From: a virus
Taxonomy: Duplodnaviria > Caudoviricetes
DNA: 64,000 bases
IMG/VR virus record: IMGVR_UViG_3300021256_000008
Span: 1-64,000 of that record
Strand: one strand, 5' to 3'
In this document: in pieces, positions 5,494 to 58,216 of the stretch
Layout: each line of letters starts with the position of its first letter
Numbering within the stretch: position 1 is the first letter of the stretch
Notes under the pieces: model-generated
Database searches by the model: none
Told to the model about the DNA's origin: nothing
Seen by the model: the letters and a program-made list of their open reading frames with translations, nothing else
Made by a program: the position numbers and the translations under genes

Positions 5494-5519
5494 TGTTTTT
5501 CACCTCCTTTCGACAAATA

Positions 5520-8694: not shown

Positions 8695-8761
8695 CTCTAT
8701 AATAGTCGATGTATTTTTTACGAATTACGAAAAAAAAGACCGGTTGCAAGAACCGATCTCT

Positions 8762-9052: not shown

Positions 9053-9149
9053 AATTTGTACCTCCTTATAATGTTAATCTCATTATAGGAGCAGTAAAAA
9101 ATACGAAAAAAAGTAGCCTCTGTAAAGACTACTTTTCTGGATGTTCCAG

Positions 9150-9350: not shown

Positions 9351-9428
9351 TTTGATGTTCTCCTTTCGTATTTCTGGATTTCTCCATTATTGCAGTTGTG
9401 AATATTACGAAAAAAAAAAGAGCCGCTG

Positions 9429-9665: not shown

Positions 9666-9816
9666 TGTTGGTCCTCCTTTAGTTTTATTATTTATCTGCA
9701 TTATAGTATCTGTAAAATTTACGAAAAAGTTGCCGACTGGAGCGATTCTGTGAGATTCCAGCAACCTTTCGGTCATTTAGGATTCTCCCATTGGCTCCAG
9801 CCGGCATTATTTTACG

Positions 9817-11249: not shown

Positions 11250-11493
11250 GTGTGCATTTTCGTGTGCACTTTTTTGTCTTTTGTGTGCATTTTTAGTTTT
11301 TCAGGTAGAACGCATATTACACCTATGAAACATGAAAATGCCAGTAAACAAAAGAAAAGTCCCACAATCGTAATGACTGTGAGACTTTATAACTGGTGGA
11401 GATGAGGGGAGTTGAACCCGTAAGATTATCCCCTAACTGCATCAGTAATTACTGGCCTCCAGAAACTCTGTGTGCATTTTCGTGTGCACTTTT
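11250..11493. mobile_element. attP region: core 11394-11419 matching a tmRNA 3' end (GGGTTCAACTCCCCTCATCTCCACCA on minus), terminator 11357-11388, identical 24-bp arm-type repeats at 11250-11273 and 11470-11493
   Basis: T-arm plus CCA end without the rest of the RNA, directly downstream of the integrase; repeats GTGTGCATTTTCGTGTGCACTTTT flank the core. Confidence 0.8.
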
Positions 11494-12525
11494 AAACATT
11501 TCTTCCATTTTTTCATTAATTACATCGGAAAAGCGGTCTTCTTTATCTTTCATAATATGCTGGTAAACGTTTTTCAGCATATAATCTGTTTTATGTCCCA
11601 TGCGAGCCATTGCGTACTTATCTGGGACACCCATGCTATGTAGCTCGCTCGCTGCGAAATGCCGAAGATCATGAAATCTACAAGGTTTAACACCAACTTT
11701 TTCACAAATTCTCTGAAAGCCTTTATAGATCGCTGCTCCTGTTAATGGGCAAATATAAGCTTCTGAGTTCTCATGCGGAAGAGCGTTAATCTTTAAGAGT
11801 AAAGTCTCTGGCACTTTAATCCACCGATCTCCTGACACAGTTTTTGTTTTCTTAAGAGTTTCTCCTTCTTCACCAGTAACAATAGCTCTCTGAATATGAA
11901 TTCTATCTCCGGAAATATCACTGAATCTGAGACCTTTAATCTCGGAAAGTCTCAAGCCAAGCATGGAAGCGAGTAATATTGGTATTTCATATTTTGTACC
12001 TTTTGCCCCGTCCCAAACTTTTTTCATTTCATCTTCTGTAAATATAGAAATTACTTTCGGATCCTTCTGTGGAAGAGCTGTGATCAGATTCATTCTCGGG
12101 CGGTAGACTTTCAGTACAGCACTAAGTAGACCGTGCGCGTTTCGAATGGTTTTTGACTTAACGCCTCTTGAAAAATCATACTTCACAGCATATTGAATAT
12201 CTTCTTGTGTGAGCTCATCAAGATGAACATCCATCAAACTCTGAAATAAATTCTTTCGAATACGTTTGTAACCGAGAATTGTCGACGGCGAAAGTGTCTT
12301 TTGTTTACTGTCGATATACTGATCGATCGCCTTACCAATTGTGAACGGAGCTTTCTTTTCTTCCTCGATTCCACCTAGGATTTCACGATAACGCTTATCA
12401 GCTTTTTCTTTACATATCGTTTTACTTTCATCAGTTACAGAATATCTTTTTCCATCGATTTGAAACTGAATTCGCCAGCTTCCGGACGGGAGCTTTTTCG
12501 GGGCTGGAAGAACAAATTTAGACAA
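11449..12525 (-). CDS. int: Tyrosine recombinase/integrase
   Basis: GLRLSEIKGL (R), KTKT (K), FHDLRHFAAS (HxxR), MGH, VYQH (Y); N-terminal GSWRIQFQIDGKRYS arm-binding domain. Confidence 0.95.
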   Translation of the reverse strand: MSKFVLPAPKKLPSGSWRIQFQIDGKRYSVTDESKTICKEKADKRYREILGGIEEEKKAPFTIGKAIDQYIDSKQKTLSPSTILGYKRIRKNLFQSLMDVHLDELTQEDIQYAVKYDFSRGVKSKTIRNAHGLLSAVLKVYRPRMNLITALPQKDPKVISIFTEDEMKKVWDGAKGTKYEIPILLASMLGLRLSEIKGLRFSDISGDRIHIQRAIVTGEEGETLKKTKTVSGDRWIKVPETLLLKINALPHENSEAYICPLTGAAIYKGFQRICEKVGVKPCRFHDLRHFAASELHSMGVPDKYAMARMGHKTDYMLKNVYQHIMKDKEDRFSDVINEKMEEMFKSAHENAHRVSGGQ

Positions 12526-14667: not shown

Positions 14668-14751
14668 AGTATTACAACTCCTTCTTAATAATCATTTTTT
14701 GCTAGTTCTCTCACTAAAGGAATTGTAATTTTTACGAATGCGGAAAATTAT

Positions 14752-14832
14752 AAAAAAAGAAAGTCATTGTAGGATTTGAACCTATATCTCCGTTTCCGGC
14801 GTGTTACCAATTAACACCAATCATTACCTCTC
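14752..14832 (-). ncRNA. tRNA-like ~80-nt RNA: D-arm and T-arm present, anticodon arm replaced by CCG-GAAA-CGG
   Basis: GTGTT-AATTGGT-AACAC, CCGGAAACGG, TAGG-TTCAAAT-CCTA; imperfect closing stem; own promoter 14836-14862 and U-tract. Confidence 0.65.
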
Positions 14833-14929
14833 TTCTATTATAGAAACTGTGATTTTTACGAATTGAAAAAAAAAGATAGGCGTTGTAAATCATGCGAAAT
14901 ACAATACCTATCTTTATTTCATTTTGATT

Positions 14930-37989: not shown

Positions 37990-39024
37990 TTATGATTTCT
38001 TAGATTTCAGAAGAGGACCAAACAGATTGGAAAGCTCTTCACCGGACATATTCGACAGAAACTCCCATTCTTCCATTTCGTCGTGCATTCCATCGACGAT
38101 GTTCTGTGCTGTCCACATCTGATACTGTGTATATTCCCCGTTTTTGTATCCCTGCTCAATTTCTTTAAGCGCGTCTTCGGCTTCCTTGATCACCTGCTGG
38201 GCCTGCTGTTTTCCGTTATCCGCCCACTCCTTCAGTTTATCCGGGGAAGACGGAATTTCAGTTGCATAGCTTCCGAGCATGGATCTGGTTTCGCTATTGG
38301 AATTAGAAGGAGAGCCGTTATGGTCTTTCAGTTTCTGCTGAATTTCTTCCTTGGCCTTTCTTGCTGTTTCTTTAGCATTGGATGCTACTTCAGATGCTTT
38401 TTCCTTAACATCATCTGCCGCATTTTCAACAGCTTCTCCTGCCTCGGCGACCTTTCGTCTTGCCATCTCGGCTTTCATGCCGGCTGGGTGCTTCTGAAGC
38501 TCGGACCAGGCCTTTTTCATGCGATCTTTAGAAGCCTCGCTGAAGTTTTCATCGGAAGCCTGTTTTCCGGCGTCCTGATACTCCTTATATGCTCTGGCGG
38601 AAGCCTTGGCTTCATTAACCGCACCCGAAGCCTTATTCTTAAACTCGTTCCCGATCTGTTCGGCACGGGTCCTGGCTTTGGAAGCTTTTTCCTGCGCTTC
38701 GCCCATTCCGGCTCTGGCCTTTTCCTTAGCTTTATTCACCGTTTGCTGAGCGGCAGCTTTCTTTTCAGCCAGATACGCCTTAAGCTCTTCCTGCGTATAG
38801 AAATATCTGGTACGCCCATTCTCTTCAATCTTCTGAATGTACTTATGGGTGGTTCTTACGCCCCTGCCGACACCCTGCTTTACAGCGCCAGCTGCTGAAC
38901 CGACTGCAGATCGTGCAGTTCTTAAGGCTCCGCTTGTGCGCTGTCTTATATCGGAAAGCGATGCATGCGCAATGTAAGGACTTCCATTTTGATCGAACAG
39001 TAGAATGTAATCGTCTTCATTCAT
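37990..39024 (-). CDS. Lys/Ala/Glu-rich helical protein with IAH leader; candidate internal virion protein
   Basis: MNEDDYILLFDQNGSPYIAH; HKYIQKIEENGRTRYFY shared with 39098..39910. Confidence 0.75.
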   Translation of the reverse strand: MNEDDYILLFDQNGSPYIAHASLSDIRQRTSGALRTARSAVGSAAGAVKQGVGRGVRTTHKYIQKIEENGRTRYFYTQEELKAYLAEKKAAAQQTVNKAKEKARAGMGEAQEKASKARTRAEQIGNEFKNKASGAVNEAKASARAYKEYQDAGKQASDENFSEASKDRMKKAWSELQKHPAGMKAEMARRKVAEAGEAVENAADDVKEKASEVASNAKETARKAKEEIQQKLKDHNGSPSNSNSETRSMLGSYATEIPSSPDKLKEWADNGKQQAQQVIKEAEDALKEIEQGYKNGEYTQYQMWTAQNIVDGMHDEMEEWEFLSNMSGEELSNLFGPLLKSKKS

Positions 39025-39097
39025 TCCTTACTTTCACTCTCCTTTCTGTTATGTAATGCTAACATCGGAGTCATCCTCCATTTGTTATAAATAGAAA

Positions 39098-39910
39098 CTA
39101 GTTCTTCTTGAAATGCTCATTAAGTTCCGAAATAAGAGCATCCTTATACTTGTTCACAAAGCTAGTGACATGCTCTTTTTTCTCATCGGTAACTTCTTTC
39201 AGTGCAATCTGCGCAAAATCGCCGGTCTCTTTAAAAAACGTCTTTGCGGCTTCTCTTTTCTCACGCTTGGCCTTCTTGACTGCCTCACTAGATGCATTCA
39301 AATCCCGCTTGGCATTAGCCTTTTCGAACTTAATCGGCGGAACCGCTTCAAAAGCACCAACGTGCATCGCCAGAGCCTGTAAGCCAACGTTTTTCATGTA
39401 TTCCTTGAAATTATCTTTTTTGGCTTTCCGAGCACGTTTTGCTTCGGCCTGCTTTTTCTTATAATCTGCAAGTGCCTCAACTGCCTCAGCATACTCCCGT
39501 TCCTTCTGATTCTTTGGAGCAAAGCCAGTTCCGCCGGTCACAGGAGTAGAGCTATTAAGCCCGTCTCCGCGTTTATAGACGCTTCCTTCTTTCGATTTAC
39601 CGGTCACTTTCTTAGAATGTCCGACAGGACGCCTGCCTGGAGTGGTAACGGTGCCTCTTCTGAATTTATCAGATCCTTTACCTTCATAAATGCCGCCGTT
39701 TTCCGAAACTGATCTGGTACCTGCACTTCGATTACGCTGATAGGCATCCCATTCCTGCTTACTGTAGAAATAGCGTGTTTTCAGACCGTTCTTTATTTTC
39801 TCATAGTACTTATGATCTTTCTTACTTTCATTTTGATTCTGTCTACGAAAGAAGGCATGAGAAATGTAAGGATGACCGGATTCATCAAAACTCACAATAT
39901 AGTCTGACAT
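39098..39910 (-). CDS. Basic protein with ISH leader; candidate internal virion protein
   Basis: MSDYIVSFDESGHPYISH; HKYYEKIKNGLKTRYFY. Confidence 0.75.
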   Translation of the reverse strand: MSDYIVSFDESGHPYISHAFFRRQNQNESKKDHKYYEKIKNGLKTRYFYSKQEWDAYQRNRSAGTRSVSENGGIYEGKGSDKFRRGTVTTPGRRPVGHSKKVTGKSKEGSVYKRGDGLNSSTPVTGGTGFAPKNQKEREYAEAVEALADYKKKQAEAKRARKAKKDNFKEYMKNVGLQALAMHVGAFEAVPPIKFEKANAKRDLNASSEAVKKAKREKREAAKTFFKETGDFAQIALKEVTDEKKEHVTSFVNKYKDALISELNEHFKKN

Positions 39911-39926
39911 ATCTCTTCACCAGTTC

Positions 39927-40373
39927 TCAAAGATGTCTTAGATACATCTGATTAGTGGTACGTGAAACGCGATTCATAAATTCCTGACCGGCTGTAATGA
40001 TACTCGGATCCAGAGTTACAACACTCTGTTTGCCGAATTCCTTCTCCATTTGCTGTACCCATCTGGCGCCTTTTTGTGCTGTTTTAACGGCACGTGCTGA
40101 CTGCACTCTAGACTTCGCGTACTGCTTTTGAGCGTAATTCGGAGACCGGAATAAAACTCTGGAATCCGCTGCTGCGCCTTTTGCCATACGCTTACGGGCC
40201 TTCTCGTCGTGCTTTTCGATCTTTCTCTGGAACTTTCCGACTTTCTTGGCGGCTTTCTCATAAGCCCGCTGAGGATTATGCCGAACGCCCCATTTCATAC
40301 CGAGAACACCGTAATGAGCGAGACTTGGAGAGCCGTTTTCATCATAGGATACAATGTAATCGGACATAATCAA
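39927..40373 (-). CDS. LAH-YG.LGMKWGVR family protein; candidate internal virion protein
   Basis: MSDYIVSYDENGSPSLAHYGVLGMKWGVRHNP. Confidence 0.8.
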   Translation of the reverse strand: MIMSDYIVSYDENGSPSLAHYGVLGMKWGVRHNPQRAYEKAAKKVGKFQRKIEKHDEKARKRMAKGAAADSRVLFRSPNYAQKQYAKSRVQSARAVKTAQKGARWVQQMEKEFGKQSVVTLDPSIITAGQEFMNRVSRTTNQMYLRHL

Positions 40374-40921
40374 TGCTCCCTTCGAACTGTATACTTCTTT
40401 CCTGTAACAAATCCGGAAGCATCCGGTTGGTTGTATTTAGTGGCCTGATACGCATTAATGCTGTTATACGCCAGATTACCCGGAATACCCGCAAGGGCAT
40501 GGGCCAATGCCGTTTCACCAGCAGTTACAAAACGGTTGTATTCCTTGCTGTTAATTGTCATCCCTTTATTGCTTGCATCAGAAAGAATCTTACTTACAAG
40601 CTTTTCGCCGGAACGAATAGCGTCGTCATATTCCTTGGCTTTTGCGGTATGCTCTTCATACTTATCGTCTTTACTCTTCTGATAAGCTTTTTCAGCTTTG
40701 ATCTTTTCTTTTGCGCTTTTGTAACGAAGGCGAGCATTTTCGGATTCGATCTTATTCAGGCTTCTCTGTGTACTACTCGCGCTGTCTGAATTATACCGTT
40801 TCTTTCCGGCATCGGTTAACGTACCGTCCTCATTTTGATACCGCCGGACGCCCCATTTCTGTCCTTTGATACCATGGTGAGCGAGGTAATCGTTTTCATA
40901 ATAATCCATAAAGTCGCTCAT
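40370..40921 (-). CDS. LAH-HGIKGQKWGVRRYQN family protein; candidate internal virion protein
   Basis: ENDYLAHHGIKGQKWGVRRYQNEDGTLTDAGKKRY. Confidence 0.8.
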   Translation of the reverse strand: MSDFMDYYENDYLAHHGIKGQKWGVRRYQNEDGTLTDAGKKRYNSDSASSTQRSLNKIESENARLRYKSAKEKIKAEKAYQKSKDDKYEEHTAKAKEYDDAIRSGEKLVSKILSDASNKGMTINSKEYNRFVTAGETALAHALAGIPGNLAYNSINAYQATKYNQPDASGFVTGKKYTVRREH

Positions 40922-40935
40922 GGTTATCACCTCAT

Positions 40936-42681
40936 TTATTCAAACATGTCCCTGTTGATCCTATAGGCAACATAGGCATCGAGCATCGCAGAGACATTAT
41001 CGATCTTCTCTTCGCGATGCTTCTTTCTTAATTTTCTGTTTCCATTAGTATCTTCCTGGGCAACACAATGGCCCATACAGAACTGCATAATATCTTCGTC
41101 AAAAATAAGTTCACGGCGTTCCGCAAGAACCTTCAGTTCACCAAGCGGAACTGACTCGGTCTTTACACCCTGAGGAACTTTTTCAATTCCGTATGGTCCG
41201 TTATCGATCTCCCAACGATTGATAAACACCGGCGCATTATATGGGTCGTATCCAACGCACATGACGTTATAGCGCTTATCGTTAATAAACTGATAGAGAT
41301 CTTCATAAACCATACCGATATCAAGAACGGTGGAGTCCATAATAACAAGACTACCTTCACGAAGGAACTTTTCATATTCCTGTCGAAGTGCTCTCGGAAG
41401 CTTTTGGAACGTATAGGACGTAATATAGCTTCGCGCCTTAACTCCAAAGCCTCTTCCCGGAATCGGGAACAGAAATGTAAAAGCACAAAAGTCGTCACCG
41501 AGCGAAAGGTCAGCACCCATCGAGCAGCTCATACCATCGAAGTACTGGCGGTGATGCGGCTTGGTTTCTTCATAAGTAAAGAAATACGTGTAACCTTCAC
41601 ATGGGATTCCAAAACGTTTGGCCAGAATATCATTACGGTTAGAAGGGCTCTTTTCAGAACGTTCTTTCTCGAGCTTATAAGTCTCGTACGTTACTGTGTG
41701 ACCAAGATTCGGGTTGGCCTTCAGCCACATATTCGGATTCTCGAGTTCCGTAAGATCGTCAAGCTTATACCACCAGATGGACACATGAGGATTGTAGTAA
41801 TCGCCCTTTAAGATGTCCATCAGTTCCATTTTGATTGTATCGCCAGGCCCATTTCGAACGGTTCCTTCCGATGATGTCGCAACAATTAGCCAATCGTCAA
41901 CTTTGGCCGCTCCCTGTTCAAGAGCGCCAACGACATCTTCGTTTACAACTCCGGAAAGCCATTCGTCAACGGTTGAGTATTTGCATCTTGCGCCCTGAAG
42001 CTTATCAATGCGCATAGGACGCGACTCGATAATGGACTGAGTTTCGAAGTTTTCAATACCCTTCTTGGTGGCTGCAATCTTGACACGATCCGCTTTCTTC
42101 CCGGTCGTATTCTGGAGCGATCCTTCTGTCATGAACTGAAGAACCGGGCCTCTTGCTCTGGCTATCGCGATCTTAAGAGGCAACAGCGTTTCTTCGGATT
42201 GGCGTATCGTAGGTGCCGTGATTATTTGGTCAGTAGATTCTTCGTCCATGATCAGACCATACGCTTGAATACATGTGCAGTATAGACTTTTTGCTGCGCC
42301 ACGACCGACAATCAGATACTGCTTATTACGCAACCGCTTCTTAATGTACCGCGTCTCCAGATGAACTCCGGGACCGTAGCTGTTCGGCACCCAGACATCT
42401 CGCCGGATGAAATAGAACCAAGAATAAATATCCTCGGCCCATAATTTAAATGAGTCGAGGAGTCTAAGGTCTCCGCCGTCCGTAAGGGTTAGTTCCGATT
42501 CACAAAAGTTGATCCAACCGTCCATGACCGTATCGTCATAGTAGCAGCGCGGATCGGCGATAAGACCGTCTATAATGTTCATTTGAAGAGCGACTTCCCG
42601 ATTCACCGGAATCTCTCTTCTTAGTACGGCGTCTCGAAAAGCGCCGTAATATTTTGGTACAGCGGTGTTCGATAACGCCAT
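40936..42681 (-). CDS. terL: Terminase large subunit
   Basis: YLIVGRGAAKS Walker A, TVDEW Walker B, GADLS..DDF and KIDNVSAMLDA nuclease motifs. Confidence 0.93.
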   Translation of the reverse strand: MALSNTAVPKYYGAFRDAVLRREIPVNREVALQMNIIDGLIADPRCYYDDTVMDGWINFCESELTLTDGGDLRLLDSFKLWAEDIYSWFYFIRRDVWVPNSYGPGVHLETRYIKKRLRNKQYLIVGRGAAKSLYCTCIQAYGLIMDEESTDQIITAPTIRQSEETLLPLKIAIARARGPVLQFMTEGSLQNTTGKKADRVKIAATKKGIENFETQSIIESRPMRIDKLQGARCKYSTVDEWLSGVVNEDVVGALEQGAAKVDDWLIVATSSEGTVRNGPGDTIKMELMDILKGDYYNPHVSIWWYKLDDLTELENPNMWLKANPNLGHTVTYETYKLEKERSEKSPSNRNDILAKRFGIPCEGYTYFFTYEETKPHHRQYFDGMSCSMGADLSLGDDFCAFTFLFPIPGRGFGVKARSYITSYTFQKLPRALRQEYEKFLREGSLVIMDSTVLDIGMVYEDLYQFINDKRYNVMCVGYDPYNAPVFINRWEIDNGPYGIEKVPQGVKTESVPLGELKVLAERRELIFDEDIMQFCMGHCVAQEDTNGNRKLRKKHREEKIDNVSAMLDAYVAYRINRDMFE

Positions 42682-42700
42682 TTTGAATTTTGCTCCTTAA

Positions 42701-44200
42701 TTAATCAATTTGCCAAACATAACGAATGTTTTTACGATTCTCAGGAGTGTCCTCAAAACCAAGATCTTTAAGAACAACACTATCTAGATTTTCTTCTGCT
42801 TTGTCATAAGCTTCTCTTGCTTTTTTCATTGCAGGATCGTTATTGAGTTGACGAACTCCTTCTAAAAAGTTGTTATCAAGATCGTATTTTTTGTATAGAC
42901 TTTCATTGACGTTTTCTAGTTCGTCCCATTTGTCCTTAAGATCGGCAAGCGCCCTTTCATGATCTTTGGACACCGAACGACTGTCGTACCAATTGCCGCT
43001 TTTTTCATTATAAGCTTTAGAAATCGCAATATACTTTCCGATATCAGCATCAGAAGGGTTTTCGCCAGTTGCCGATTTCAAATAGTCTTCCTGAGCCCTC
43101 GCACGCTCGTCACGGTCTTTAATATTAGACATGCGATCAAGTTCGAGTTCGCCGTCTTTTTCTAATTTATCCCAATATTTTTTATAGATTTCTTTATCCT
43201 GTTTGGAAGCTTTCCACTTTCCGTTGCTTCTTTTTCGGTATACATTTCGAAAGGTTCCGTTACTGGCATACCTGGTTTTTCCTTCTTCGGTCAGTGTCCC
43301 GTCTGCATTCTGGTAGCGTCTTACGCCCCATTTCATACCAAGAATGCCATGATGAGCGAGAAAATCTTCGTCGTCTGAAATATCTTCCACATTAGTTCCG
43401 AGTGCGTCATGTGATACATACCAGTCGGGATCCCGCCCGGTGTACCAGTTTGCGTTTTTCGGAAGATTATCAACAATATCTTGGACAAGGTCTTCGGTTG
43501 ACTTCACTTCCGGAATAGACGAAGCTACTTTCTTATTAAGTACATCAACGGAATTAGACCACTTGACGTATTCGGCGAGTTCATTTGCCGTGAACGCCTT
43601 CTGATTCTTCAGAATATCATCAACTGACATGTTTCGAAGAAGTGCCGCCTTGTCAACTTTCTTCTCTTCCGGTTTTTCACCGATCTTGAGCATTCTCTTA
43701 CCGTTGACTTTTCCGGAGTCAACCAGTACGTTGTTAACTTCGGCCATAAGGTTATACATACCCTTTGCGTTTTCAGCGAGGCCTTTAATCTTGCCGAGAT
43801 TCTGAGAAAACTGCTGCATTTTGTTCCATCCGCGCTGAATTTCAGCATCACGAATATCTTTCAGCGCAGTATCGGTTCTGATCTTATTCGTAAGATCACG
43901 GATCTCATCGTCGGAAAACTCGGTGCGGTACTTATACAGTCTGCTCGGATGTTTACGAACATGCTCTTTCAGAGCTTCATGCTTTTCGGCTTCTGACTCT
44001 TTTGCCTTGGCGGCTTTTTCTTCCTTCAGCTTACTTACTTTATCCTTAATCTTTTCTCGGACTGATTTGTCAGAAATTCCGCGTCTCTGTCGCCCGAGCT
44101 GTGTGAGAGATCCGTCTTCGTTCTGATAACGACGAATTCCCCATTTCTGGCCTTTAATGCCGTGATGGGCCAGATAATCATTGTTGAGTTCAAATTCCAT
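42701..44200 (-). CDS. Protein with two LAH-HGI.G.KWG.RRYQN units; candidate polyprotein
   Basis: Motif at the N-terminus and again after the acidic linker YVSHDALGTNVEDISDDEDFLAH. Confidence 0.8.
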   Translation of the reverse strand: MEFELNNDYLAHHGIKGQKWGIRRYQNEDGSLTQLGRQRRGISDKSVREKIKDKVSKLKEEKAAKAKESEAEKHEALKEHVRKHPSRLYKYRTEFSDDEIRDLTNKIRTDTALKDIRDAEIQRGWNKMQQFSQNLGKIKGLAENAKGMYNLMAEVNNVLVDSGKVNGKRMLKIGEKPEEKKVDKAALLRNMSVDDILKNQKAFTANELAEYVKWSNSVDVLNKKVASSIPEVKSTEDLVQDIVDNLPKNANWYTGRDPDWYVSHDALGTNVEDISDDEDFLAHHGILGMKWGVRRYQNADGTLTEEGKTRYASNGTFRNVYRKRSNGKWKASKQDKEIYKKYWDKLEKDGELELDRMSNIKDRDERARAQEDYLKSATGENPSDADIGKYIAISKAYNEKSGNWYDSRSVSKDHERALADLKDKWDELENVNESLYKKYDLDNNFLEGVRQLNNDPAMKKAREAYDKAEENLDSVVLKDLGFEDTPENRKNIRYVWQID

Positions 44201-47911: not shown

Positions 47912-49492
47912 TCATACTTTAAGCAGCTCCTTCCATGTTTTTGGGCCGATTTCACCGTCCAGTTCGAGACCTTTTGCTTTCTGGAAATGTCGGATCTTCT
48001 CATCCATTTCCTTACCGAAGATACCGGTTACGACGATGGTGTAGCCCCAGCACTGCAAAGCTGCCTGCGCAAGCTTCACATCGGAGCCCTCATCTTCCAT
48101 TTTGATTTCGCGAACTCGAATGTTTGGAAACGGAATCTGAGTTACGGGCTCAATAACGGTCTCTTCCTGCTTCGGCTTCGGTGTGTTAAGCGCTGCCTCC
48201 AACGCCTTTCTAGTATCAGGACCGACTTCACCGTCAACAGGATCAAGACCGTGCTCAGTCTGGAACTTCTTCACAGCATTGTAGGTATCCGTGCCGAAAT
48301 CTCCGTCCGCGCCCCATTTACCGAGATCGTATCCAAGCTTCATGAGCTTCTGCTGAAGATCTTTCACGTCTTCGCCGCTTACACCCATTCGAAGAATGCG
48401 ATCAGAAGTATTAGAGAATACAGCCGAAACATCACCATTTGATGCAAGCTCCCATCTCGGTCTTCCGTAACCATAAATCGACGCACTCGACAGGGAATAT
48501 GTACGTCTGCTTACCTGATCGGATGAGTTACCTTCAATTGTTGTCACCATTCCGCTGGAAACTGCTTCGACAATTCCTGTATGGCTCACTTCGCCGGCTG
48601 AATAGGTAAAGAAGATCTGATCACCTGGTTTCGGATCATTCGTCCAACGTCCTGCCTGCTTGTAGTACTGTGCTGAATAAAGGCATCCGGCGCCGGCACT
48701 GTTATATGGCTGACATACCATCTGCCGTCCGATTTCCGCGCCGAAACATTTCACGAACAGCCAGTCTACAAATACATCGCACCAGGCATAACCGTTCTTG
48801 TTTCCATTATAGAAATTCCCGATGGCAGCCAGGTCTCTTGCGTATTTTGTCCAGTTACCTGCTCCTGAGTTTGCGGTCTTATCGTCAAGACTTGCGTTTG
48901 AAGCTTTTTCATGGTAACCGAGTTCGGCTCGTGCCTGGTTGAGAGCCTTTTCGATTGCCTCATCTGCACTAATAGCAGAAGAACCGTCGTCAAGAGTAAG
49001 TGCCGAGAACATTTTAAAGAAGTTCTGAGCTGCCTGATAGCGGTTCACCATGTTGTTTGTTTTTTCTTTCGGATTCTCCCATTTGTCGAGGAGCTCCCAG
49101 GTACAGGCTTTCAGATCCGAACTGCTTGTTACCAGTTTCCACTGATTTGGGAAATAATTTTTCATTTCCCAGAGCAGATACTGAATCTGAGTTTCAGAGT
49201 CTCCGATCGATTTACCCCTTGCTCGATGGAAATCGTACATGCGGCCTTTTCTTGTGGGTTCGGTCCACTGTGCATATCCATAGCCAACGCCGTCATAGGA
49301 AAACTGATGTCTGGTACGCTCTCCTGAATCTATCTGAGCTGTGTAAACATCATCGGCAATTCCCTTTGAGTCTTCGGCGTTGTTTGGCCGGAACGCACTT
49401 TCGAACTGAATCTGTCCAAGAGTCGCGCAGGCTCCTGCTTGAGTCATACCGGCTTCTCGAAAGCGCCGATAAAGGTGTTCTTGTGTTGTCAT
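47912..49492 (-). CDS. Endolysin: phage-tail-lysozyme-like domain, CHAP domain, two PG-binding domains
   Basis: LGQIQFES...GYGYAQWT; WCDVFV...HTGIV...TIEGNSS; DVKDLQ..L..LGY..DGDFG..T..AVKKFQ..GL..DG.VGP.T twice. Confidence 0.92.
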   Translation of the reverse strand: MTTQEHLYRRFREAGMTQAGACATLGQIQFESAFRPNNAEDSKGIADDVYTAQIDSGERTRHQFSYDGVGYGYAQWTEPTRKGRMYDFHRARGKSIGDSETQIQYLLWEMKNYFPNQWKLVTSSSDLKACTWELLDKWENPKEKTNNMVNRYQAAQNFFKMFSALTLDDGSSAISADEAIEKALNQARAELGYHEKASNASLDDKTANSGAGNWTKYARDLAAIGNFYNGNKNGYAWCDVFVDWLFVKCFGAEIGRQMVCQPYNSAGAGCLYSAQYYKQAGRWTNDPKPGDQIFFTYSAGEVSHTGIVEAVSSGMVTTIEGNSSDQVSRRTYSLSSASIYGYGRPRWELASNGDVSAVFSNTSDRILRMGVSGEDVKDLQQKLMKLGYDLGKWGADGDFGTDTYNAVKKFQTEHGLDPVDGEVGPDTRKALEAALNTPKPKQEETVIEPVTQIPFPNIRVREIKMEDEGSDVKLAQAALQCWGYTIVVTGIFGKEMDEKIRHFQKAKGLELDGEIGPKTWKELLKV

Positions 49493-51069: not shown

Positions 51070-51666
51070 ATGAAAAAATTCATTTCAATGATGCTGGTTC
51101 TGACGCTGCTTGGAAGTTTATTCTCTGTAACATCTTTTGCTGATGCCAAATCTGACATTGAAGTAATGTCAAAAATAGCAGACAAACTTTTTGATACTTC
51201 AGATGACATGGATGTCCAGGTATTCTTTTCAGCAGCTACTTATGAACTGTTACGTAGAAAAATTATTTCGGTTGAGCAATGCAATGAAATACTTTCAATC
51301 ATTCAGTCACCGGATAAAAATACTTATACATTCGGTAAGGGAACCTTTATTGTCGGTACAGATCTGAAAGCCGGCACCTATAATATCTTTTGTGAATCTA
51401 CGGACCAGGATAATTACTCGGACAGCATAAGTTCTTTCGGAGATCTCTATACCCAGTATGGGATGCAGGAATATGCAGACGCTTTTAGTTCTCTTGGTGG
51501 TCTTGCTGATTCGATGAAGTCTATTACTGTTACGACTTACTCTTCCAGAGGTCTGATGGATAAGTACTACACACTGAAAAATAATGAATCAGCTCGTATC
51601 ATTCTGACAGATGGAATGCAGCTTGAAATTAGCGGCGGAACTGCAAGACTTGAGTTCGTAAGATAA
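51070..51666 (+). CDS. Secreted or surface moron protein, opposite strand to the morphogenesis operon
   Basis: Signal peptide MKKFISMMLVLTLLGSLFSVTSFA; G.FIVGTDLKAGTY motif; own promoter and AAAGGA RBS. Confidence 0.8.
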   Translation: MKKFISMMLVLTLLGSLFSVTSFADAKSDIEVMSKIADKLFDTSDDMDVQVFFSAATYELLRRKIISVEQCNEILSIIQSPDKNTYTFGKGTFIVGTDLKAGTYNIFCESTDQDNYSDSISSFGDLYTQYGMQEYADAFSSLGGLADSMKSITVTTYSSRGLMDKYYTLKNNESARIILTDGMQLEISGGTARLEFVR

Positions 51667-52099: not shown

Positions 52100-52436
52100 C
52101 GGTAGACTCCGTTCTATAATTCTTAAGAGCTGCAACAACTTCTTTGTAAAATATAGCACGATCTTTCTCGGACTCGATAGCCGATGTCTTAGCTCTGAGT
52201 AACGCGTTCTCCTCTTGCAGTTTCGCCATCTCTTCTCTATACTTTGCAGAACCGGCCTTTAGAAAAGGAACTATCTCGGCAGCCGTTGCAGTGCCATTAT
52301 CAATTCGCTCTTCAACAAGGCGATAGCTTTTCATGATCAATCGGTTCTCATACTCTTCTGGAGTGGTCGGAATTGGCTCAGGAAAAACTTCACTACTAGT
52401 TTGTTTGGGTTTTCGTGCAGCCAAGGTATAGTTCAT
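52071..52436 (-). CDS. Putative terminase small subunit
   Basis: Helical 121 aa, first gene of the morphogenesis operon, next to HNH and candidate packaging site. Confidence 0.5.
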   Translation of the reverse strand: MNYTLAARKPKQTSSEVFPEPIPTTPEEYENRLIMKSYRLVEERIDNGTATAAEIVPFLKAGSAKYREEMAKLQEENALLRAKTSAIESEKDRAIFYKEVVAALKNYRTESTDVPENPYVF

Positions 52437-52460
52437 CTCCTTTCTTGCCTAGTTTTACCA

Positions 52461-52864
52461 TAGTCTCGATACTTTTTAGGTGAGTATGATGCTAGTTTTC
52501 ACTAGAGTATGGACGGAGCAAATGACACGAAAGGAGAACCCTTGGAAGAAGAGGAATACGGCAATGAGCAAAACCGTTAACGAATACATCATACTCACTT
52601 AAAAAGCATCGGACTAAAATATAAACTATCCCCCCGGAGGAAAATTTAGGACCCGCGCGATTATGGGCCCCCTATATTATATTTTGACCCTCCCCCGGGT
52701 GTTTATATCCGATTTATATTTAGTTTATGTTCATAAAAGACGAATGAACAAGCGCAAAGCGCATAGAAGTTGTAAGAAATGCAACTAGATAGCGATTCGT
52801 TATGAGATAGTTGACATCTATACCTATAATCAATCTATAATCATACAAAAAGCTATCTAGTTGC
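52461..52864. repeat. Non-coding region with a 24-bp inverted repeat (52468-52491/52587-52610), a GC-rich block (52629-52700) and a perfect 13-bp inverted repeat (52781-52793/52852-52864); candidate cos/packaging region
   Basis: Repeats read directly; cos role inferred from position. Confidence 0.5.
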
Positions 52865-52912
52865 GGTCTAGTTTCAGTTTATTTCGTTTCTATTATTACA
52901 ATTTTATTCTTT

Positions 52913-53179
52913 CTAACTCTCTACGACTTTTACATAACATACTTCTTTTCCAGTAACAGGACTAATCATTCGAAGATCCATCGCTACAATCTCATCACAA
53001 GCATCTTCGATAGCCTGATCCATTTCTTTTTCCGTAAGATCGGGAGAAATAGCAGCAATGCGCGCGAGGTAGGACATGGAATAATAGCCACATTCTTTTT
53101 CGTCATACGCTGCCCAACGATCATATTGTTTGAATGGATCAAACTTATTGTCACTTGTTGTTATTAGTGTTCGCGCCAT
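52913..53179 (-). CDS. Small acidic protein overlapping the end of the RNAP gene
   Basis: GGGAGG RBS; TT.DN.FDPF.QYD.W...GY.S.SYLARIA. Confidence 0.75.
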   Translation of the reverse strand: MARTLITTSDNKFDPFKQYDRWAAYDEKECGYYSMSYLARIAAISPDLTEKEMDQAIEDACDEIVAMDLRMISPVTGKEVCYVKVVES

Positions 53180-55973
53180 TGTTCAAATCGCCTCCCATTC
53201 CATTAAAGTTCTTGAATTCTTTTGCTAAAGCATCTACTGAAACTCCTAATTCTTTTGCTACAGTTGAAGGTGCATAGCCAGAATTCAATAATACTCTTGC
53301 ACGACTTTTTGTCGTTGCTTTCATTCCGGTAGAGGCTCTTGGTAAAGCTCTTTCTTTTATTTTAGTTTTATCTGAGTATCTTAAAACTTTTTGGAACTGA
53401 GTATCTGAAATAGCTCCAGCCTGAATTGCTTCCCATTCACGATCAGTAAGATCTATTCTGTAACGTTTTTCATGTCTTCCGCCATTTACAGCGTCTCTTG
53501 CATTATCTAAAGCTTTAGCGGCAAGTTTTCTTCTCTTATCAGCATGATCTTTATCTCTAAGAGAAGGATCAGCCGCTTCTTTTGCTCTCATAACATTTGA
53601 GGCAATGATCTGAGCTTGACGCTCTTTCGGAGCCTCGAGTTCTGCTCGAGCAATCTTCTTTGCAAGAGTTCCGTCTTTTCCTACAACATCGTCGTAGACT
53701 TCACGTGCGGTCTTGTTCTGTTCAAGCCGACCAGTAGAACGAGCTTCTTTACGAGCTTCATTTGCCAGCGCTTTCATTCTATTAGAATGCTCAGCATACA
53801 CTTCTTCAATGTAATAACCGGCGGACAGTTCATGAGCATCGTCTACAACCGATAATTTTTCAACTTTGTCAATATTGTCTACCCATTTACCATTCTTATC
53901 TTTATGCTTATGACCCGTAGGACGATAGATCTTTTCACCTCTATCATAACGTTCCTTCTCTTCCGGTGTCATGGTAGAGTAGGCATAGATTTCCTTTCTC
54001 TCAGGAATTCTGGTCTCACCCTTAGCTCTCGAAATCAGTGTGGAAGCGCCGCCACCATCCTGATAAAGTTCTTTAAGTTGAGCGATGCCATTATCTTCGT
54101 AAGACTTTTTCCAGTCAAGGTTGTGTTTTTCGGCATCTATTACGCACATTGAATGCCTAACGGCTCGTTCGATTTCGCTTGGATCAGCGCCCTTGATCGT
54201 CATGTCCGTAATCAAGTTGGATGCCATACCCATCTGAACGCCTTTATTAAAGCCGTCGCCCTTCTTTCCATCCTTGCTTTTACCGGTTCGAATCGGATCG
54301 TTCGGATCTCTCGTGTAGTAATCGGACGGATTGTAATCGATGAGACCTTCCATAGGAGGAGCTGTCTTTAGCTTTTGGCCTTTTGTCGGAATAACAAGAA
54401 CTGTATCGCCGTCATAATCTGCGCCAGATAGCTGGTTTGCAGAACGTGAATTAATCCCAATTGCGTGCGCTGCAGATGTACCAAGAAGCGCTTTTCCTTC
54501 AGGATTGTTATTATTTACAATCAGCCTTGGAATCTGGAAAACGCCTTCATGCGGATGACGAACAAGAATGACTTCTTCTCCCTGTTCATACATAGGAGCA
54601 TAAACTTCGTTATCTTTAAGACTCGTAACAGGTAAAATTGCAAAAGCACCTTGGCGCGGCAATGCAGCGGCTTTCAAATGCACGGCGGCAGAATCACATG
54701 TATCTGCAAACTCTTCGCAAAGTTGCCTCTTAAGAGTCGGATTTGTGATAGATTTAAGTTCCTCAAATTCATCGCTCATTTCGCCATAGCGGAGATCGAG
54801 TTGCTTTTTTGCAAGCTGTGGCCACTGCTTCGAAAGAAATTGGGATGACAGGTTTTTCTTCCACGTATCCCAGTCTTCATCATCGTTTACGATGTTAATC
54901 GGCGACGTATGTTTTTCACCATTAGGGCCATCGTATTCCCACTGCCTAAAAGATGCTCCAAACGGATTTTCGGCATCGATTTTTCCTTTATCGTCCGTTT
55001 TCATTTCTTTAAGAACGGTGTTATCACCTTTCCCAATCATCGGAACATCTGAATGCTTATTTGTATTAAACACAATATCGACGCCGGGAGGCATCTTTGA
55101 AGGATCACCATAAACGGCCATTCCCTTCAGATAATGTGTCCCATCAACACCAATTCGAACCTGGGCATAGTTTCTGCCGCCCAAATATAAATCATCGGTT
55201 CCTGGACGAATCTCGATAACTCCGTCTTTCTCCTGTCCGCCGCCAGGTTCACCAGTATTGTAGTTCACCATGACGCGGCTTGAATCGATACTCGGGATCG
55301 GCTTTCTGTGAACTGCAGTTTCGCCGTAGTCCTCAAAATATAAACCTTCAGGCGATGTTACTTTCCCAAGATTCTCTTTAAGCTCTGCTTTGGTTACTTC
55401 GCCATCACAAAGAATTTTTAGATTCGTAAACTGCTTCGGATTACTGACCTGAGGAAGGCGATAATCATAGACGTTGTATCCTTCGTCTTCAAGAAGCAGT
55501 CTTGCAGCATGAAGCTGCTCTTCACTGATATTCAGCTGACGGTTAACACCTTCACCGATGTCCAGATACGGTTTGTCTTTCAGATACTCTTTCAGCTCGT
55601 TAGCGATATTCTGTACAGTATCTTCGCGACGTTTCTTTGATGGATCCAAAAGATTACGAACAGTACCTTCTGAAACTCCAAGCTTTTCAGCAATTGCCGT
55701 GTTACTCCAGCCTTTATCTTTCAGCTTCAGGGCTGTCATCTGATTTTCGGCACCGATTTGATTCTTATAGATCTTTCGCATGGCGACATAATCGCCGGTA
55801 CTCAAACCCATAGCTTCAGCAATTTGCTTCTTTGATAGTCCTTGTGCGGCAAGGTCGTCAGCGCGCTGAAGAAAGTTTTTATTACGCTGAGGATTCTTTC
55901 CGGATCCCCAAGGGTAACGTCCAGAATGTCTAGGTGTTCCGTAATGTTTTAAAATATTCATATCAGCCTTCAA
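53151..55973 (-). CDS. Single-chain two-barrel (YonO/QDE-1-like) RNA polymerase with two N-terminal and one C-terminal HTH; start probably ATG 55961
   Basis: QLSGADYDGD (DYDGD at 54405-54419), VILVRHP, YAQVRIG...LKGMAV, HSMCVIDAEKH match conserved DPBB motifs. Confidence 0.8.
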   Translation of the reverse strand: MKADMNILKHYGTPRHSGRYPWGSGKNPQRNKNFLQRADDLAAQGLSKKQIAEAMGLSTGDYVAMRKIYKNQIGAENQMTALKLKDKGWSNTAIAEKLGVSEGTVRNLLDPSKKRREDTVQNIANELKEYLKDKPYLDIGEGVNRQLNISEEQLHAARLLLEDEGYNVYDYRLPQVSNPKQFTNLKILCDGEVTKAELKENLGKVTSPEGLYFEDYGETAVHRKPIPSIDSSRVMVNYNTGEPGGGQEKDGVIEIRPGTDDLYLGGRNYAQVRIGVDGTHYLKGMAVYGDPSKMPPGVDIVFNTNKHSDVPMIGKGDNTVLKEMKTDDKGKIDAENPFGASFRQWEYDGPNGEKHTSPINIVNDDEDWDTWKKNLSSQFLSKQWPQLAKKQLDLRYGEMSDEFEELKSITNPTLKRQLCEEFADTCDSAAVHLKAAALPRQGAFAILPVTSLKDNEVYAPMYEQGEEVILVRHPHEGVFQIPRLIVNNNNPEGKALLGTSAAHAIGINSRSANQLSGADYDGDTVLVIPTKGQKLKTAPPMEGLIDYNPSDYYTRDPNDPIRTGKSKDGKKGDGFNKGVQMGMASNLITDMTIKGADPSEIERAVRHSMCVIDAEKHNLDWKKSYEDNGIAQLKELYQDGGGASTLISRAKGETRIPERKEIYAYSTMTPEEKERYDRGEKIYRPTGHKHKDKNGKWVDNIDKVEKLSVVDDAHELSAGYYIEEVYAEHSNRMKALANEARKEARSTGRLEQNKTAREVYDDVVGKDGTLAKKIARAELEAPKERQAQIIASNVMRAKEAADPSLRDKDHADKRRKLAAKALDNARDAVNGGRHEKRYRIDLTDREWEAIQAGAISDTQFQKVLRYSDKTKIKERALPRASTGMKATTKSRARVLLNSGYAPSTVAKELGVSVDALAKEFKNFNGMGGDLNNGANTNNNK

Positions 55974-56535
55974 CCTCTCTCAACGAATCCTGGACCCAGC
56001 CATCTTTTTCTTTGATGTTATAGATGACTTCTTCAACGCGGTCCTTATCAGGACTAAACTCCTGAATATCATCATTCTGATAAATACGCAGATTCACTTT
56101 TGTGTTAAGCGGATTTACGCCATAGGCCCGCTCATATTCCAAAAGAAAAAGAGCAGCATAAATTTCAAGCTGCTCCATATGAACCGGTCCGCTGCCGGTT
56201 TTGAGATCATGAACACGAAGAATACCGTGATCAAAATTAATTGCATCGCTATGGCCAAAGCATGAGTCAGAATACTTTAAAGCAACTTCAGGCGTCATTC
56301 CGAAACCAATTGCATCGTTTACATATGCAACCAGTGTTTGAGTTGAACCGCGAAGTTTCAAACCTTTATTTATCAAGCGAGCTGCAATGTCATGAAGTTC
56401 TGTACCTTCTGCAGCCGCTTTCTGTGCTCTGATATAATTTCTTATCTGATCCTGTGTATAATTTAACCAATACGGTTTACTTGGACTCAGAAGAGCATGC
56501 TTGCCCTCCAGTTCTAAATGCTTGTTGAAGTTCAT
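55963..56535 (-). CDS. Cas4-like PD-(D/E)XK nuclease (DUF2800-like)
   Basis: HALLSPS...EGTELH...FGHSDAI...HDLKTG...QLEIYA; GGAGG RBS before ATG 56535. Confidence 0.8.
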   Translation of the reverse strand: MNFNKHLELEGKHALLSPSKPYWLNYTQDQIRNYIRAQKAAAEGTELHDIAARLINKGLKLRGSTQTLVAYVNDAIGFGMTPEVALKYSDSCFGHSDAINFDHGILRVHDLKTGSGPVHMEQLEIYAALFLLEYERAYGVNPLNTKVNLRIYQNDDIQEFSPDKDRVEEVIYNIKEKDGWVQDSLREVEG

Positions 56536-56806
56536 CCAATACCTCCTGCTTATTCTCGGGGTAAATGAATCTCGCAAACGACATCTGATCAGCACGCTCA
56601 ACGTAATAATCCTGATTAGGCTGATGCGTTGATTTCTCTTCCCTTTTACATTCAAGCAATGCCCAATGATCTTTGTATAAAACTGTGAGATCAGGGAATC
56701 CCTGTCGTGTCTCATTCTTATAGATCAACGCTTCAGGAAATATCTTTTCAAGCTCATCGATCAGATCTCGTTGGAACTTACTTTCAAGCGCTTTCTTATT
56801 AGCCAT
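56477..56806 (-). CDS. VRR-NUC domain nuclease
   Basis: LESKFQ..LI..L...GFPDL...LLECK...QPNQ. Confidence 0.8.
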   Translation of the reverse strand: MANKKALESKFQRDLIDELEKIFPEALIYKNETRQGFPDLTVLYKDHWALLECKREEKSTHQPNQDYYVERADQMSFARFIYPENKQEVLDELQQAFRTGGQACSSESK

Positions 56807-56824: not shown

Positions 56825-56974
56825 ATGCTAAAAATGCATATCTGCTTCCCTCTCTACTATAGTCGCTGTAAATTTTACGAATCGCGTAAAATGCGCCAAA
56901 TAAGAAAAAGGAAACAGAATGCTAAAAATGCATATCTGCTTCCCTCTCTACTATAGTCGCTGTAAATTTTACGA
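56825..56974 (-). repeat. Exact 56-bp tandem duplication (56825-56880, 56919-56974), each containing the phage promoter motif and a leader hairpin
   Basis: Read directly; upstream of the VRR-NUC, Cas4-like and RNAP operon. Confidence 0.9.
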
Positions 56975-58216
56975 TTTTCGTGATTTAAAGAAAACGCTTT
57001 CGTTGAAGTTCCGTTTTCGTTTAAGAGCTCTACTAATTGCAATATCAATAGGCGCCATTGATCTGAAGCTGTAGTAATATAAATCGTGGAAAGGAGTATT
57101 TCGCCGATCTATACGACCCATCGCTTGTTCGGTTGCTTTGTACGAATAACTCGGAGAATAGAATAGCATGGAGTCCGTTGTCGTGCAGTTCCATCCTTCT
57201 GCTCCCGCAGCATACTGAACAAGATAGACCCAGCGAATATCAGTCGGAACTTCTTCATGCCGGTGCCCGTTCCATTCCCTGACAACTGTGCCTTCCGGCC
57301 AGTTCGCATTCTTGAGAATATCAAGTTCATAATCGAAGTTATAAAAGATAATGAGTCTTGGATGTTCTTGCGCAATTTCCAAAACATTTTCAATTCTCGA
57401 CGGATCTGAATTTACAATTTTCCGGAGAAGATAACAAAGTTCGCTGACATTCTCAACAGGCCTGTTTTCGAATATATTCCATCTTTCGCGCATGAGCACC
57501 CTGTAAGACTCACGGTCATACTCTACCGGTATAACTTCACTATGCCGCTCTGTCGGCTTCTGATATTCAATGTTCACAAGAATTGAATCCCGCATACGTT
57601 GCAAAATATAATCGTCGATGTAGCGGTCAACCTGCGGATACTTGGAATAGCGATTATAGACGACATGACGCATCTCGAACTCTCTCTTAGTCCGAAAGAA
57701 TCCGTTCGCAATAAAGATTGCCAGATAGTCCATCCAACAGTCTCCTGGTGTTGCCGTGAGAAATATCCAGTGATTTGACTTTGAAATCTTTACGAACGCT
57801 CTTGCCCATGTCTTGTAACTCACCACTCTCTGTTCGTCAAATAGAAAGACTGCGTCTTTTACATCGATATACTTCTGAACATTATTCCATGAATCGACAG
57901 TTACCTTTACCTTGTCTTTGTAGGATGACTTTTCAGGATTCGTCGAAAGTCCAAAAGGCTCCATCTCTTCATCCCATTCACCATCGTCACGTTTTTTGGC
58001 AGTGGTGATAATGTAAAGATCCTTCGGCCAGAGCATTGGAACAATATCATTCTTAAGACCTCGTTCCTTTCCGTTCATCTGGCCGCCGCAAACCTTCGTG
58101 AAGTACCAGGCAAGGCCGGTCCGACTTTTGCCGGAACCGACTCCACCAATCAGAATATTACCGTTCTGCAATTGTTCAAGTGCCTTCAGCTGACCTGCAT
58201 CAAGCTCCGGAGTCAT
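56969..58216 (-). CDS. Superfamily 2 helicase
   Basis: GGVGSGKS, FDEQ, LTATP, QYAAGAEGWN, EQAMGRIDR. Confidence 0.9.
   Translation of the reverse strand: MTPELDAGQLKALEQLQNGNILIGGVGSGKSRTGLAWYFTKVCGGQMNGKERGLKNDIVPMLWPKDLYIITTAKKRDDGEWDEEMEPFGLSTNPEKSSYKDKVKVTVDSWNNVQKYIDVKDAVFLFDEQRVVSYKTWARAFVKISKSNHWIFLTATPGDCWMDYLAIFIANGFFRTKREFEMRHVVYNRYSKYPQVDRYIDDYILQRMRDSILVNIEYQKPTERHSEVIPVEYDRESYRVLMRERWNIFENRPVENVSELCYLLRKIVNSDPSRIENVLEIAQEHPRLIIFYNFDYELDILKNANWPEGTVVREWNGHRHEEVPTDIRWVYLVQYAAGAEGWNCTTTDSMLFYSPSYSYKATEQAMGRIDRRNTPFHDLYYYSFRSMAPIDIAISRALKRKRNFNESVFFKSRKS

Follow-up and report, generated by a model that had tools for sequence, protein, structure and literature searches.

A predicted single-chain two-barrel RNA polymerase with fused helix-turn-helix units and its candidate promoter in a gut siphophage genome

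The window analyzed here, 64,000 nucleotides corresponding to positions 1 to 64,000 of the IMG/VR virus record IMGVR_UViG_3300021256_000008 (Duplodnaviria; Caudoviricetes), encodes on its minus strand a protein of about 940 amino acids (open reading frame (ORF) 53151-55973). By sequence similarity, it is a member of the family that comprises ORF75 of Lactococcus phage 1706, the protein of Faecalibacterium phage FP_oengus and those of many actinophages, united in PHROG 4291. On the whole, we favor, with some reservation, the view that the protein is a virion-borne, promoter-specific, single-chain two-barrel DNA-dependent RNA polymerase (RNAP) of this 1706 ORF75 family. The interpretation as a two-barrel polymerase had been put forward in an earlier reading of the DNA letters alone, here termed the original prediction. 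It is right but not new, as the family had been predicted computationally before, and the gene itself is a routine member of a family flagged earlier in the literature and in PHROGs. The value of the case lies in the model of a cognate promoter combined with delivery in the virion, which is testable in cultured relatives.

The polymerase core, its helix-turn-helix units and its relatives

The ORF exists as originally described, with 940 residues counted from a TTG at 55973. The product is probably 936 amino acids long and starts at the ATG at 55961, because this codon has a GAAGG Shine-Dalgarno (SD) sequence 5 nt upstream, is located shortly after the stop codon of the gene before it and yields the same length as the 936-residue cluster representative P0001, which is 99% identical to the protein. 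All sequence strings quoted in the original prediction were recovered, namely YAQVRIG (residues 269-275), LKGMAV (282-287), VILVRHP (468-474), GADYDGD (517-523), HSMCVIDAEKH (607-617) and the three helix-turn-helix (HTH) strings at residues 46-58, 89-109 and 900-913. The protein is organized as follows:

53151..55973, minus strand: RNAP-like ORF, 940 residues from TTG 55973, 936 residues from ATG 55961 being more probable
55881..55973, minus strand: short leader, residues 1-31, ending in I-L-K-H, then the invariant YG..R.SGRYPWGSG; predicted disordered, predicted local distance difference test (pLDDT) score below 50
55800..55874, minus strand: N-terminal HTH 1, residues 34-58; model helices 34-43 and 48-54, family consensus, and a PHROG 664 match in two stretches over residues 35-109
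55623..55739, minus strand: N-terminal HTH 2, residues 79-117, similar to sigma region 4 and HTH_23
53739..55295, minus strand: two-barrel catalytic core, residues 227-745, from structural alignment and Foldseek (E = 3.6e-8)
55110..55226, minus strand: motif block of the first, beta-like barrel with D250, Q271-x-R273 and K283-G284, in invariant or nearly invariant columns
54387..54650, minus strand: second, beta-prime-like barrel with R472-x-P474-H475 and the metal loop D519-x-D521-G-D523, in invariant columns
54123..54245, minus strand: bridge-helix-like helices, residues 577-617, with invariant M581, G582, N586, D590, D613, K616 and H617
53217..53318, minus strand: C-terminal HTH, residues 886-919, with HTH_7 (PF02796) at 891-913 and profile matches to HTH chains

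An AlphaFold2 model built on an alignment of 100 sequences (mean pLDDT 87, predicted template modelling score 0.79) contains two double-psi beta-barrel domains in the order beta-like, then beta-prime-like. When this model was compared with the Protein Data Bank (PDB) using Foldseek, ranks 1-27 (E ≤ 1.7e-3) were all occupied by single-chain two-barrel polymerases, with QDE-1 (E = 3.6e-8), P74-26 gp62, P23-45 gp64, plant RDR2 and P23-45 gp96 in the top group, and the large subunits of multisubunit RNAPs followed after rank 27. In VIA-align, residues 227-749 of the model were aligned with residues 683-1188 of QDE-1 (2j7n_A) across both barrels (Z 16.7, root-mean-square deviation 4.7, 366 residues). 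RDR2 reached Z 16.3 and P74-26 gp62 Z 14.8, and the large RNAP subunits Rpb1 and that of African swine fever virus gave Z values of about 11 over model residues 432-642. The comparison by structure prediction and fold search that had been proposed along with the original prediction thus found the barrel pair in place, and an intact two-barrel polymerase fold is, as far as a model can tell, nearly certain. At the sequence level, the Pfam family RdRP (RNA-dependent RNA polymerase, PF05183) stayed below its gathering threshold (15.3 versus 23.8 bits) and covered only residues 511-554 around the DxDGD loop, and searches of PDB sequences that took either the protein or the family profile as query returned just HTH chains and a non-significant match to P23-45 gp96 (8h2n, E = 0.3).

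To assess residue conservation, 100 representatives with 41-65% identity to the query were aligned. Q271, R273, K283, G284, R472, P474 and H475 are present in all 100 aligned sequences, as are D519, D521, G522, D523, D613, K616 and H617, and D250 is conserved in at least 90%. The DxDGD metal-binding loop and the R-x-P signature of the beta-prime-like barrel are therefore not only present but made up of invariant residues. R273, K283 and D250 appear to correspond, judged by order and spacing in the sequence, to R738, K743 and D709 in the beta-like barrel of QDE-1. Model, fold searches and invariant catalytic residues together back the original prediction of a single-chain two-barrel polymerase homologue with built-in HTH units, and we consider it likely that the protein is an active RNAP that transcribes phage genes.

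The predicted arrangement of two HTH units at the N-terminus and one at the C-terminus also held. Pfam supports the units at residues 79-109 (HTH_23, PF13384, 48 bits) and 891-913, and the first unit is indicated by the family consensus, PHROG 664 and the helices of the model. HTH 2 additionally matches Sigma70_r4_2 (PF08281) at residues 77-109 (31.4 bits, cut-off 25.7) and gives weak PDB matches to sigma region 4. Since HTH_23 outscores PF08281 at this position, HTH 2 should be taken as a generic three-helix HTH and not as proof of sigma ancestry. In the C-terminal HTH, G899, A906, G910 and S912 are the conserved positions. The proposal that the HTH units serve as a promoter-recognition module now finds support in a promoter-like motif that travels with the polymerase gene, and they may well act in this way.

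PHROG 4291, annotated as RNA-dependent RNA polymerase, matches the protein from end to end (E = 2.5e-303, residues 3-921 versus positions 7-906 of the 909-position profile). A tblastn search found homologues in 250 phage records, and in 249 of these the match extends over 80% or more of the query with 33-45% identity. These phages infect Arthrobacter, Gordonia, Streptomyces, Curtobacterium, Microbacterium and Rhodococcus or belong to the Lactococcus 1706 group, and Faecalibacterium phage FP_oengus is also among them. In metagenomes, the family forms 766 clusters at 50% identity (E ≤ 1e-30). The commonest GenBank label of the homologues is 'HTH DNA-binding domain protein'. The '1706' family had already been placed among the YonO-like two-barrel proteins (Ruprich-Robert & Thuriaux 2010, PMC2919709), and Koert et al. 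(bioRxiv 10.1101/842583) described the same layout, in which an RdRP-like core and a DxDGD loop are flanked by HTHs at the two termini, as that of a supercluster signature gene and reported an HHpred probability of 95.7% to RdRP for the family alignment. The compact size and the HTH arrangement, which the original prediction had called unusual, are instead the standard architecture of this very large, previously published family. The same applies to the coexistence with an integrase, which is already known from the prophage FP_oengus with its tyrosine integrase (PMC5883640). As all of these features are shared by PHROG 4291 relatives and have been described earlier, they are family traits and not peculiarities of the copy studied here.

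The proteins from 1706, FP_oengus and the actinophages have in common the N-terminal motif, a pair of HTHs near the N-terminus, the two-barrel core and a further HTH at the C-terminus. The loci are alike as well. The gene follows those for an endonuclease and a Cas4-type exonuclease and precedes a small conserved gene, and the same promoter-like motif is present. Nothing essential differs between this family and the protein from the window. The animal-gut phage itself is larger, with 85 kb compared to 43-79 kb for isolated relatives, has a duplicated promoter-like copy and, like Oengus, carries an integrase.

Outside the family, the best structural matches of the core are QDE-1 from Neurospora and RDR2 (Z 16-17 over about 360 residues), which exhibit the same order of motifs. 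However, these are eukaryotic RNA-silencing enzymes acting on RNA or single-stranded DNA, they are only 12-16% identical and have neither HTHs nor a promoter. The RNAPs of the Thermus phages P23-45 and P74-26 are likewise single-chain two-barrel enzymes (gp62, Z 14.8; gp96, Foldseek E = 3.8e-4). Each of them reads its own conserved motif, and one, gp96, is virion-borne whereas gp64/gp62 is not. They differ from the protein described here in lacking fused HTHs and in using other promoters, and gp96 is fused to the tape measure protein, whereas our protein is free-standing and has a leader. As a precedent for phage two-barrel RNAPs with motifs of their own, P23-45 is counted in favor of the promoter reading presented below. 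The original prediction had named YonO of SPbeta and gp66 from phi14:2, a crAss-like phage, as known relatives. This holds at the level of the superfamily but not for close kinship. YonO, likewise a two-barrel RNAP in a single chain and from a temperate siphophage of Firmicutes, can be aligned in the RxPH...DxDGD block, but it lacks HTHs and transcribes late genes (PMC5467207), and the similarity is not significant (BLASTP E = 0.18, confined to that block; probability 0.8% when the family was compared with the single YonO sequence in hhalign). The phi14:2 protein belongs to the same superfamily and is packaged, ejected and transcribes early genes, which is the working model proposed here, but it comprises 2180 residues and shares no common HTH architecture. 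Its BFVD fragment S0A2C3_2 matched weakly in Foldseek (E = 0.069, probability 0.28). Judging from the model, QDE-1/RDR2 and the non-virion RNAPs of P23-45/P74-26 are structurally nearer to the protein than YonO and gp66.

The promoter-like motif and its distribution

When the whole 85,078-bp genome was scanned on both strands with a position weight matrix (PWM), a 30-nt oriented element was found in 34 copies on the coding strand, in none on the other strand and in none in shuffled sequence. Its consensus is close to TTTCGTAAAAATTACAGCTCCTATAATGnAGA, and in its three-block form it reads TCGCA-N5-TTACA-N4-CTATAAT-GAGA over about 30 nt. The copies precede small genes at 1.9-9.7 kb, 14.7-14.9 kb and 67-84 kb, with those in the window located at 1919-9726, 14710-14863 and 56853-56976, and each of the 34 is positioned 25-45 nt upstream of an SD sequence and start codon. 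Neither the structural module (15-52 kb) nor the block with the polymerase and helicase genes (57-67 kb) holds a copy, and a repeated motif peculiar to the structural module was likewise not seen in this analysis. Two copies are relevant for the polymerase gene:

56853..56882, minus strand: promoter-like copy heading the endonuclease-exonuclease-RNAP operon (PWM 36.6 bits; -909 from the RNAP start)
56947..56976, minus strand: second promoter-like copy, part of a tandem duplication of about 94 bp

This duplication (56825-56976) comprises two identical promoter-like copies and a short hairpin-like stretch, and contigs from the DNA run break exactly there.

The element contains a TATAAT-like box, and yet its sequence does not conform to a canonical sigma-A promoter. 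From the conserved upstream block to this box the distance is 14 nt and not 17 nt, the TTACA/TGACA block is just 5 nt away from it and there is no -35 element at 16-18 nt. In addition, 11 of the 34 copies have a T where sigma-A needs A-11, and conservation extends downstream of the TATAAT-like box. A scan for the sigma-70 consensus around the RNAP gene yielded 13 matches compared to 9.9 ± 3.6 in shuffles and thus no enrichment. In three metatranscriptome runs from two studies, contigs covered small parts of the RNAP operon at a depth of 0.5-3, and in run X5 the region 57.3-62.6 kb was not covered though DNA depth is even there. As such contigs cannot show transcription starts and as DNA carry-over is possible, no conclusion was drawn from either observation.

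Phages that encode the RNAP and infect seven other host genera from two phyla also have the motif. The same three-block element precedes small early genes of Streptomyces phage Rima, and Lactococcus phage 1706 has 11 forward copies and no reverse copy. Forward and reverse copies numbered 11 and 0 in ReqiPoco6, 11 and 0 in Arthrobacter phage Arcadia, 11 and 1 in Gordonia phage OhMyWard and 13 and 0 in Microbacterium phage Count, with 0-4 matches for the reversed pattern as a control in these four phages. A cross-phage PWM applied to 80 RNAP-encoding IMG/VR loci (909 kb) gave 70 forward and 2 reverse matches. Among the 54 loci with enough upstream DNA, 33 have a copy within 2.5 kb upstream of the RNAP gene. 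The distance has its mode at -0.90 to -0.95 kb, as with the value of -909 found here, and the GC content of the contigs ranges from 31 to 53%. Note that a strict 15-nt core pattern gave a poor signal in the same 80 loci (42 forward, 15 reverse; controls 24/32). This can be explained by the small number of copies near the gene and by drift of the core, and the signal was resolved by the full PWM.

The authors of a genome announcement noted the motif in one Cluster DJ phage and took it for a sigma-70 promoter (PMC9671010), and no paper linking the motif to the polymerase was found in the literature searched. The best explanation for the persistence of one and the same signal of about 30 nt, whether the hosts are of Clostridia type, lactococcal or actinobacterial, is a reader that the phages themselves encode and have conserved. 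The HTH-bearing polymerase would be the obvious candidate among the few proteins common to all motif-bearing phages, and we lean towards the motif being the promoter of the RNAP-like enzyme.

The N-terminal leader and virion association

The authors' own GenBank entry for phage 1706 (EU081845) gives orf75, the RNAP homologue, the label 'structural protein', and gp106 of ReqiPoco6 copies this label. The RefSeq copy of 1706 renames orf75 'RNA-dependent RNA polymerase'. As the label in EU081845 is also attached to two genes beyond the morphogenesis module, orf62 and orf71, it probably stands for detection in virions.

Residues 1-31 of the protein are predicted to be disordered, and yet G12, S17, G18, R19 and G25 are invariant in the 100 representatives. 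Across the family, the N-terminus consists of an acidic leader with a median length of 12 residues, followed by L/I-x-H and then YG..R.SGRYPWGSG. The residue at the leader end (P1) is histidine in 62 of 67 scorable family members, and P3 is leucine or isoleucine in 53 of them. A comparable head, i.e., leader-L-x-H-[HY]G..WG, is found on four proteins encoded beside the terminase gene in this phage, three of which are DUF7211 proteins. Likewise, orf75 (L005:3083-6172) and orf7 (L004:2501-3889) of 1706 share a leader-L-Q-H-[YR]G..WG N-terminus; a 'structural' label for orf7 was seen only in the RefSeq copy. In the window, the genes concerned and the head gene discussed below are:

42701-44200, minus strand: leader-bearing gene (two units)
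40370-40930, minus strand: leader-bearing gene
39927-40373, minus strand: leader-bearing gene
39098-39910, minus strand: leader-bearing gene
37990-39024, minus strand: leader-bearing gene
34449-36464, minus strand: fusion of protease, scaffold and major capsid protein (phrog_3270)

Five genes around the terminase gene (37990-44200, minus strand) share the acidic N-terminal leader ending in [LI]-x-H. In three of them, DUF7211 (HG.KG.KWG) follows, and the gene bodies are rich in lysine and arginine and mutually unrelated. These proteins are candidates for capsid cargo or ejection proteins.

The fusion protein has 11 of its 17 histidines in an [LIV]-x-H context. Six such sites, with acidic residues after them, reside in the scaffold part (residues 158-334), the last one just before the capsid domain, a distribution that suggests a histidine-specific maturation cut. 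In phage T4, capsid-targeting leaders are cut by the head protease at L/I-x-E. By analogy, the family leader suggests that the polymerase may be loaded into the prohead and trimmed there. For a virion-borne RNAP, the balance tips slightly to the positive side.

Proposed mechanism, rival explanations and genome context

In the mechanism that we propose, the enzyme would recognize, probably via its HTH units, the element TCGCA-N5-TTACA-N4-CTATAAT-GAGA in front of 34 transcription units, which comprise arrays of small early genes as well as its own endonuclease-exonuclease-RNAP operon. RNA synthesis would start just downstream of the element and independently of a host sigma factor. The acidic leader at its N-terminus would bring the polymerase into the prohead, the head protease would trim the protein after the L-x-H site, and it would be ejected together with the DNA, such that early transcription could begin without host RNAP. 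All parts joined, i.e., a sigma-free, self-sufficient RNAP whose HTHs read a promoter of about 30 nt that is nearly unchanged across two phyla and which is loaded into the capsid by a leader cut by a histidine-specific protease, make up a picture that we offer tentatively, with its full truth rather doubtful. Neither the pairing of promoter and polymerase nor the leader code was found in the literature searched.

In principle, the protein could also be an active RNAP that, like YonO, is made by host RNAP after infection or induction and serves middle or late genes, with the 34-copy motif being a host sigma-A promoter combined with an operator. A single operon of late genes is indeed transcribed by YonO (PMC5467207), the motif includes a TATAAT-like box in line with the sigma-70 reading in the Cluster DJ phage (PMC9671010), and a copy at the head of the RNAP operon would suit host-driven expression and prophage induction. 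What speaks against such a function is that about 20 positions at fixed spacing are conserved across phages of Clostridia, Lactococcus and five actinobacterial genera, that the sigma-A reading meets neither a -35 element at 16-18 nt nor, in 11 of 34 copies, an A-11, and that a repeated motif peculiar to the structural module (15-52 kb) was not seen in this analysis. We consider this explanation unlikely. A role in replication or recombination, be it as an RNA-dependent RNA polymerase or as a polymerase forming primers or R-loops together with the neighboring nucleases, helicase and annealing protein, appears improbable. The gene does close the replication/recombination module, the family bears the database name 'RNA-dependent RNA polymerase', and the nearest solved folds, QDE-1 and RDR2, belong to RNA-dependent enzymes, and QDE-1 also copies DNA (PMC9508822). 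However, the adjacent DNA polymerase already has a primase domain, three HTHs of the sequence-specific type and a co-travelling promoter-like motif fit transcription initiation better, and YonO and the P23-45 enzymes, which belong to the superfamily and come from phages, are DNA-dependent transcriptases. Finally, most GenBank records name an HTH DNA-binding protein and that of 1706 a structural protein, as would befit a mere DNA-binding regulator or structural component with a catalytically dead polymerase-like core. Such conservation of catalytic residues is not expected of a dead enzyme, given that the metal-binding aspartates and the basic residues contacting nucleoside triphosphates are invariant in the 100 representatives, and this possibility is thus very remote indeed.

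Several points weigh against the promoter-specific, virion-borne RNAP that we favor. No biochemical or other bench test of the PHROG 4291/1706 ORF75 family was found in the literature searched, such that activity, template and promoter specificity are predictions, and the putative equivalence of the active site with that of QDE-1 is based on order and spacing of residues in the sequence. The -10-like TATAAT box would also suit host sigma-A, and the announcement cited above read the motif in that way. Oengus has diverged copies of the motif only, with no copy of the core pattern and weaker PWM matches. As the RNAP operon bears the same motif, an induced prophage would need another source of the first RNAP molecules, which is awkward if the phage is temperate. 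Virion association rests on the label in EU081845 and its copy in ReqiPoco6. Residues 1-45 of the RNAP gave no match to the DUF7211 hidden Markov model (PF23847) at E ≤ 10, compared to 38-70 bits for the neighboring proteins, and the likeness of its N-terminus to DUF7211 (L-x-H, [YH]G, WG) is therefore a visual resemblance.

How minimal two-barrel RNAPs find their promoters is an open question, and for YonO promoter recognition is stated as unknown by its authors (PMC5467207). The 1706 ORF75 family is suited for a direct test because DNA-binding modules are fused to the catalytic chain and the candidate promoter is sharply defined, and hundreds of cultured relatives are available in tractable hosts, i.e., Lactococcus, Streptomyces, Arthrobacter and Gordonia. 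If the proposed mechanism is true, it would provide a compact orthogonal transcription system and a further example of a virion-delivered RNAP.

The record from which the window takes the first 64 kb is a complete virus genome of 85,078 bp that has direct terminal repeats, and not an integrated prophage. Nearly all genes lie on the minus strand. In the direction of transcription, a DNA polymerase/primase fusion, an annealing protein, a helicase, an endonuclease and a Cas4-type exonuclease precede the RNAP-like gene, and after it come the conserved small gene, one for an HNH endonuclease and the packaging, head and tail genes. Genes referred to in the text are:

56477..56806, minus strand: endonuclease, first gene of the RNAP operon (phrog_93, E = 1.3e-13)
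55963..56715, minus strand: Cas4-type exonuclease (phrog_3953, E = 8e-62)
52913..53179, minus strand: small conserved gene, always 3' of the RNAP gene (phrog_4303, E = 1.9e-22; synteny)
11449..12525, minus strand: tyrosine integrase (PF00589, 52-54 bits)

In its listed extent (55963-56715), the exonuclease ORF overlaps the endonuclease gene by 239 nt, and its true start is probably internal since the family match begins at residue 61. The counterparts of the small conserved gene are orf76 in 1706 and gp107 in ReqiPoco6. The original prediction had placed the polymerase in a temperate siphophage alongside an integrase. The tyrosine integrase is indeed encoded in the same genome, which contains no serine recombinase, and a tape measure protein of 2057 residues among the tail genes fits a siphovirus. 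The temperate lifestyle is based on the integrase and on relatives, and not on observed integration.

After the small gene downstream of the RNAP gene, a gene-free gap of 477 bp (52436-52913) probably marks the physical genome end (cos), because in ReqiPoco6 the 3' cos end lies just after gp107. The sole sizeable plus-strand gene in the region (51070-51666) encodes a protein of 198 amino acids with a signal-peptide or lipoprotein-like N-terminus and without a PHROG match, and it may be a moron or exclusion gene. A multidomain endolysin of 526 amino acids (47912-49492, minus strand) is encoded upstream of the head genes, and 1706 and the actinophages likewise have lysis genes in the left arm.

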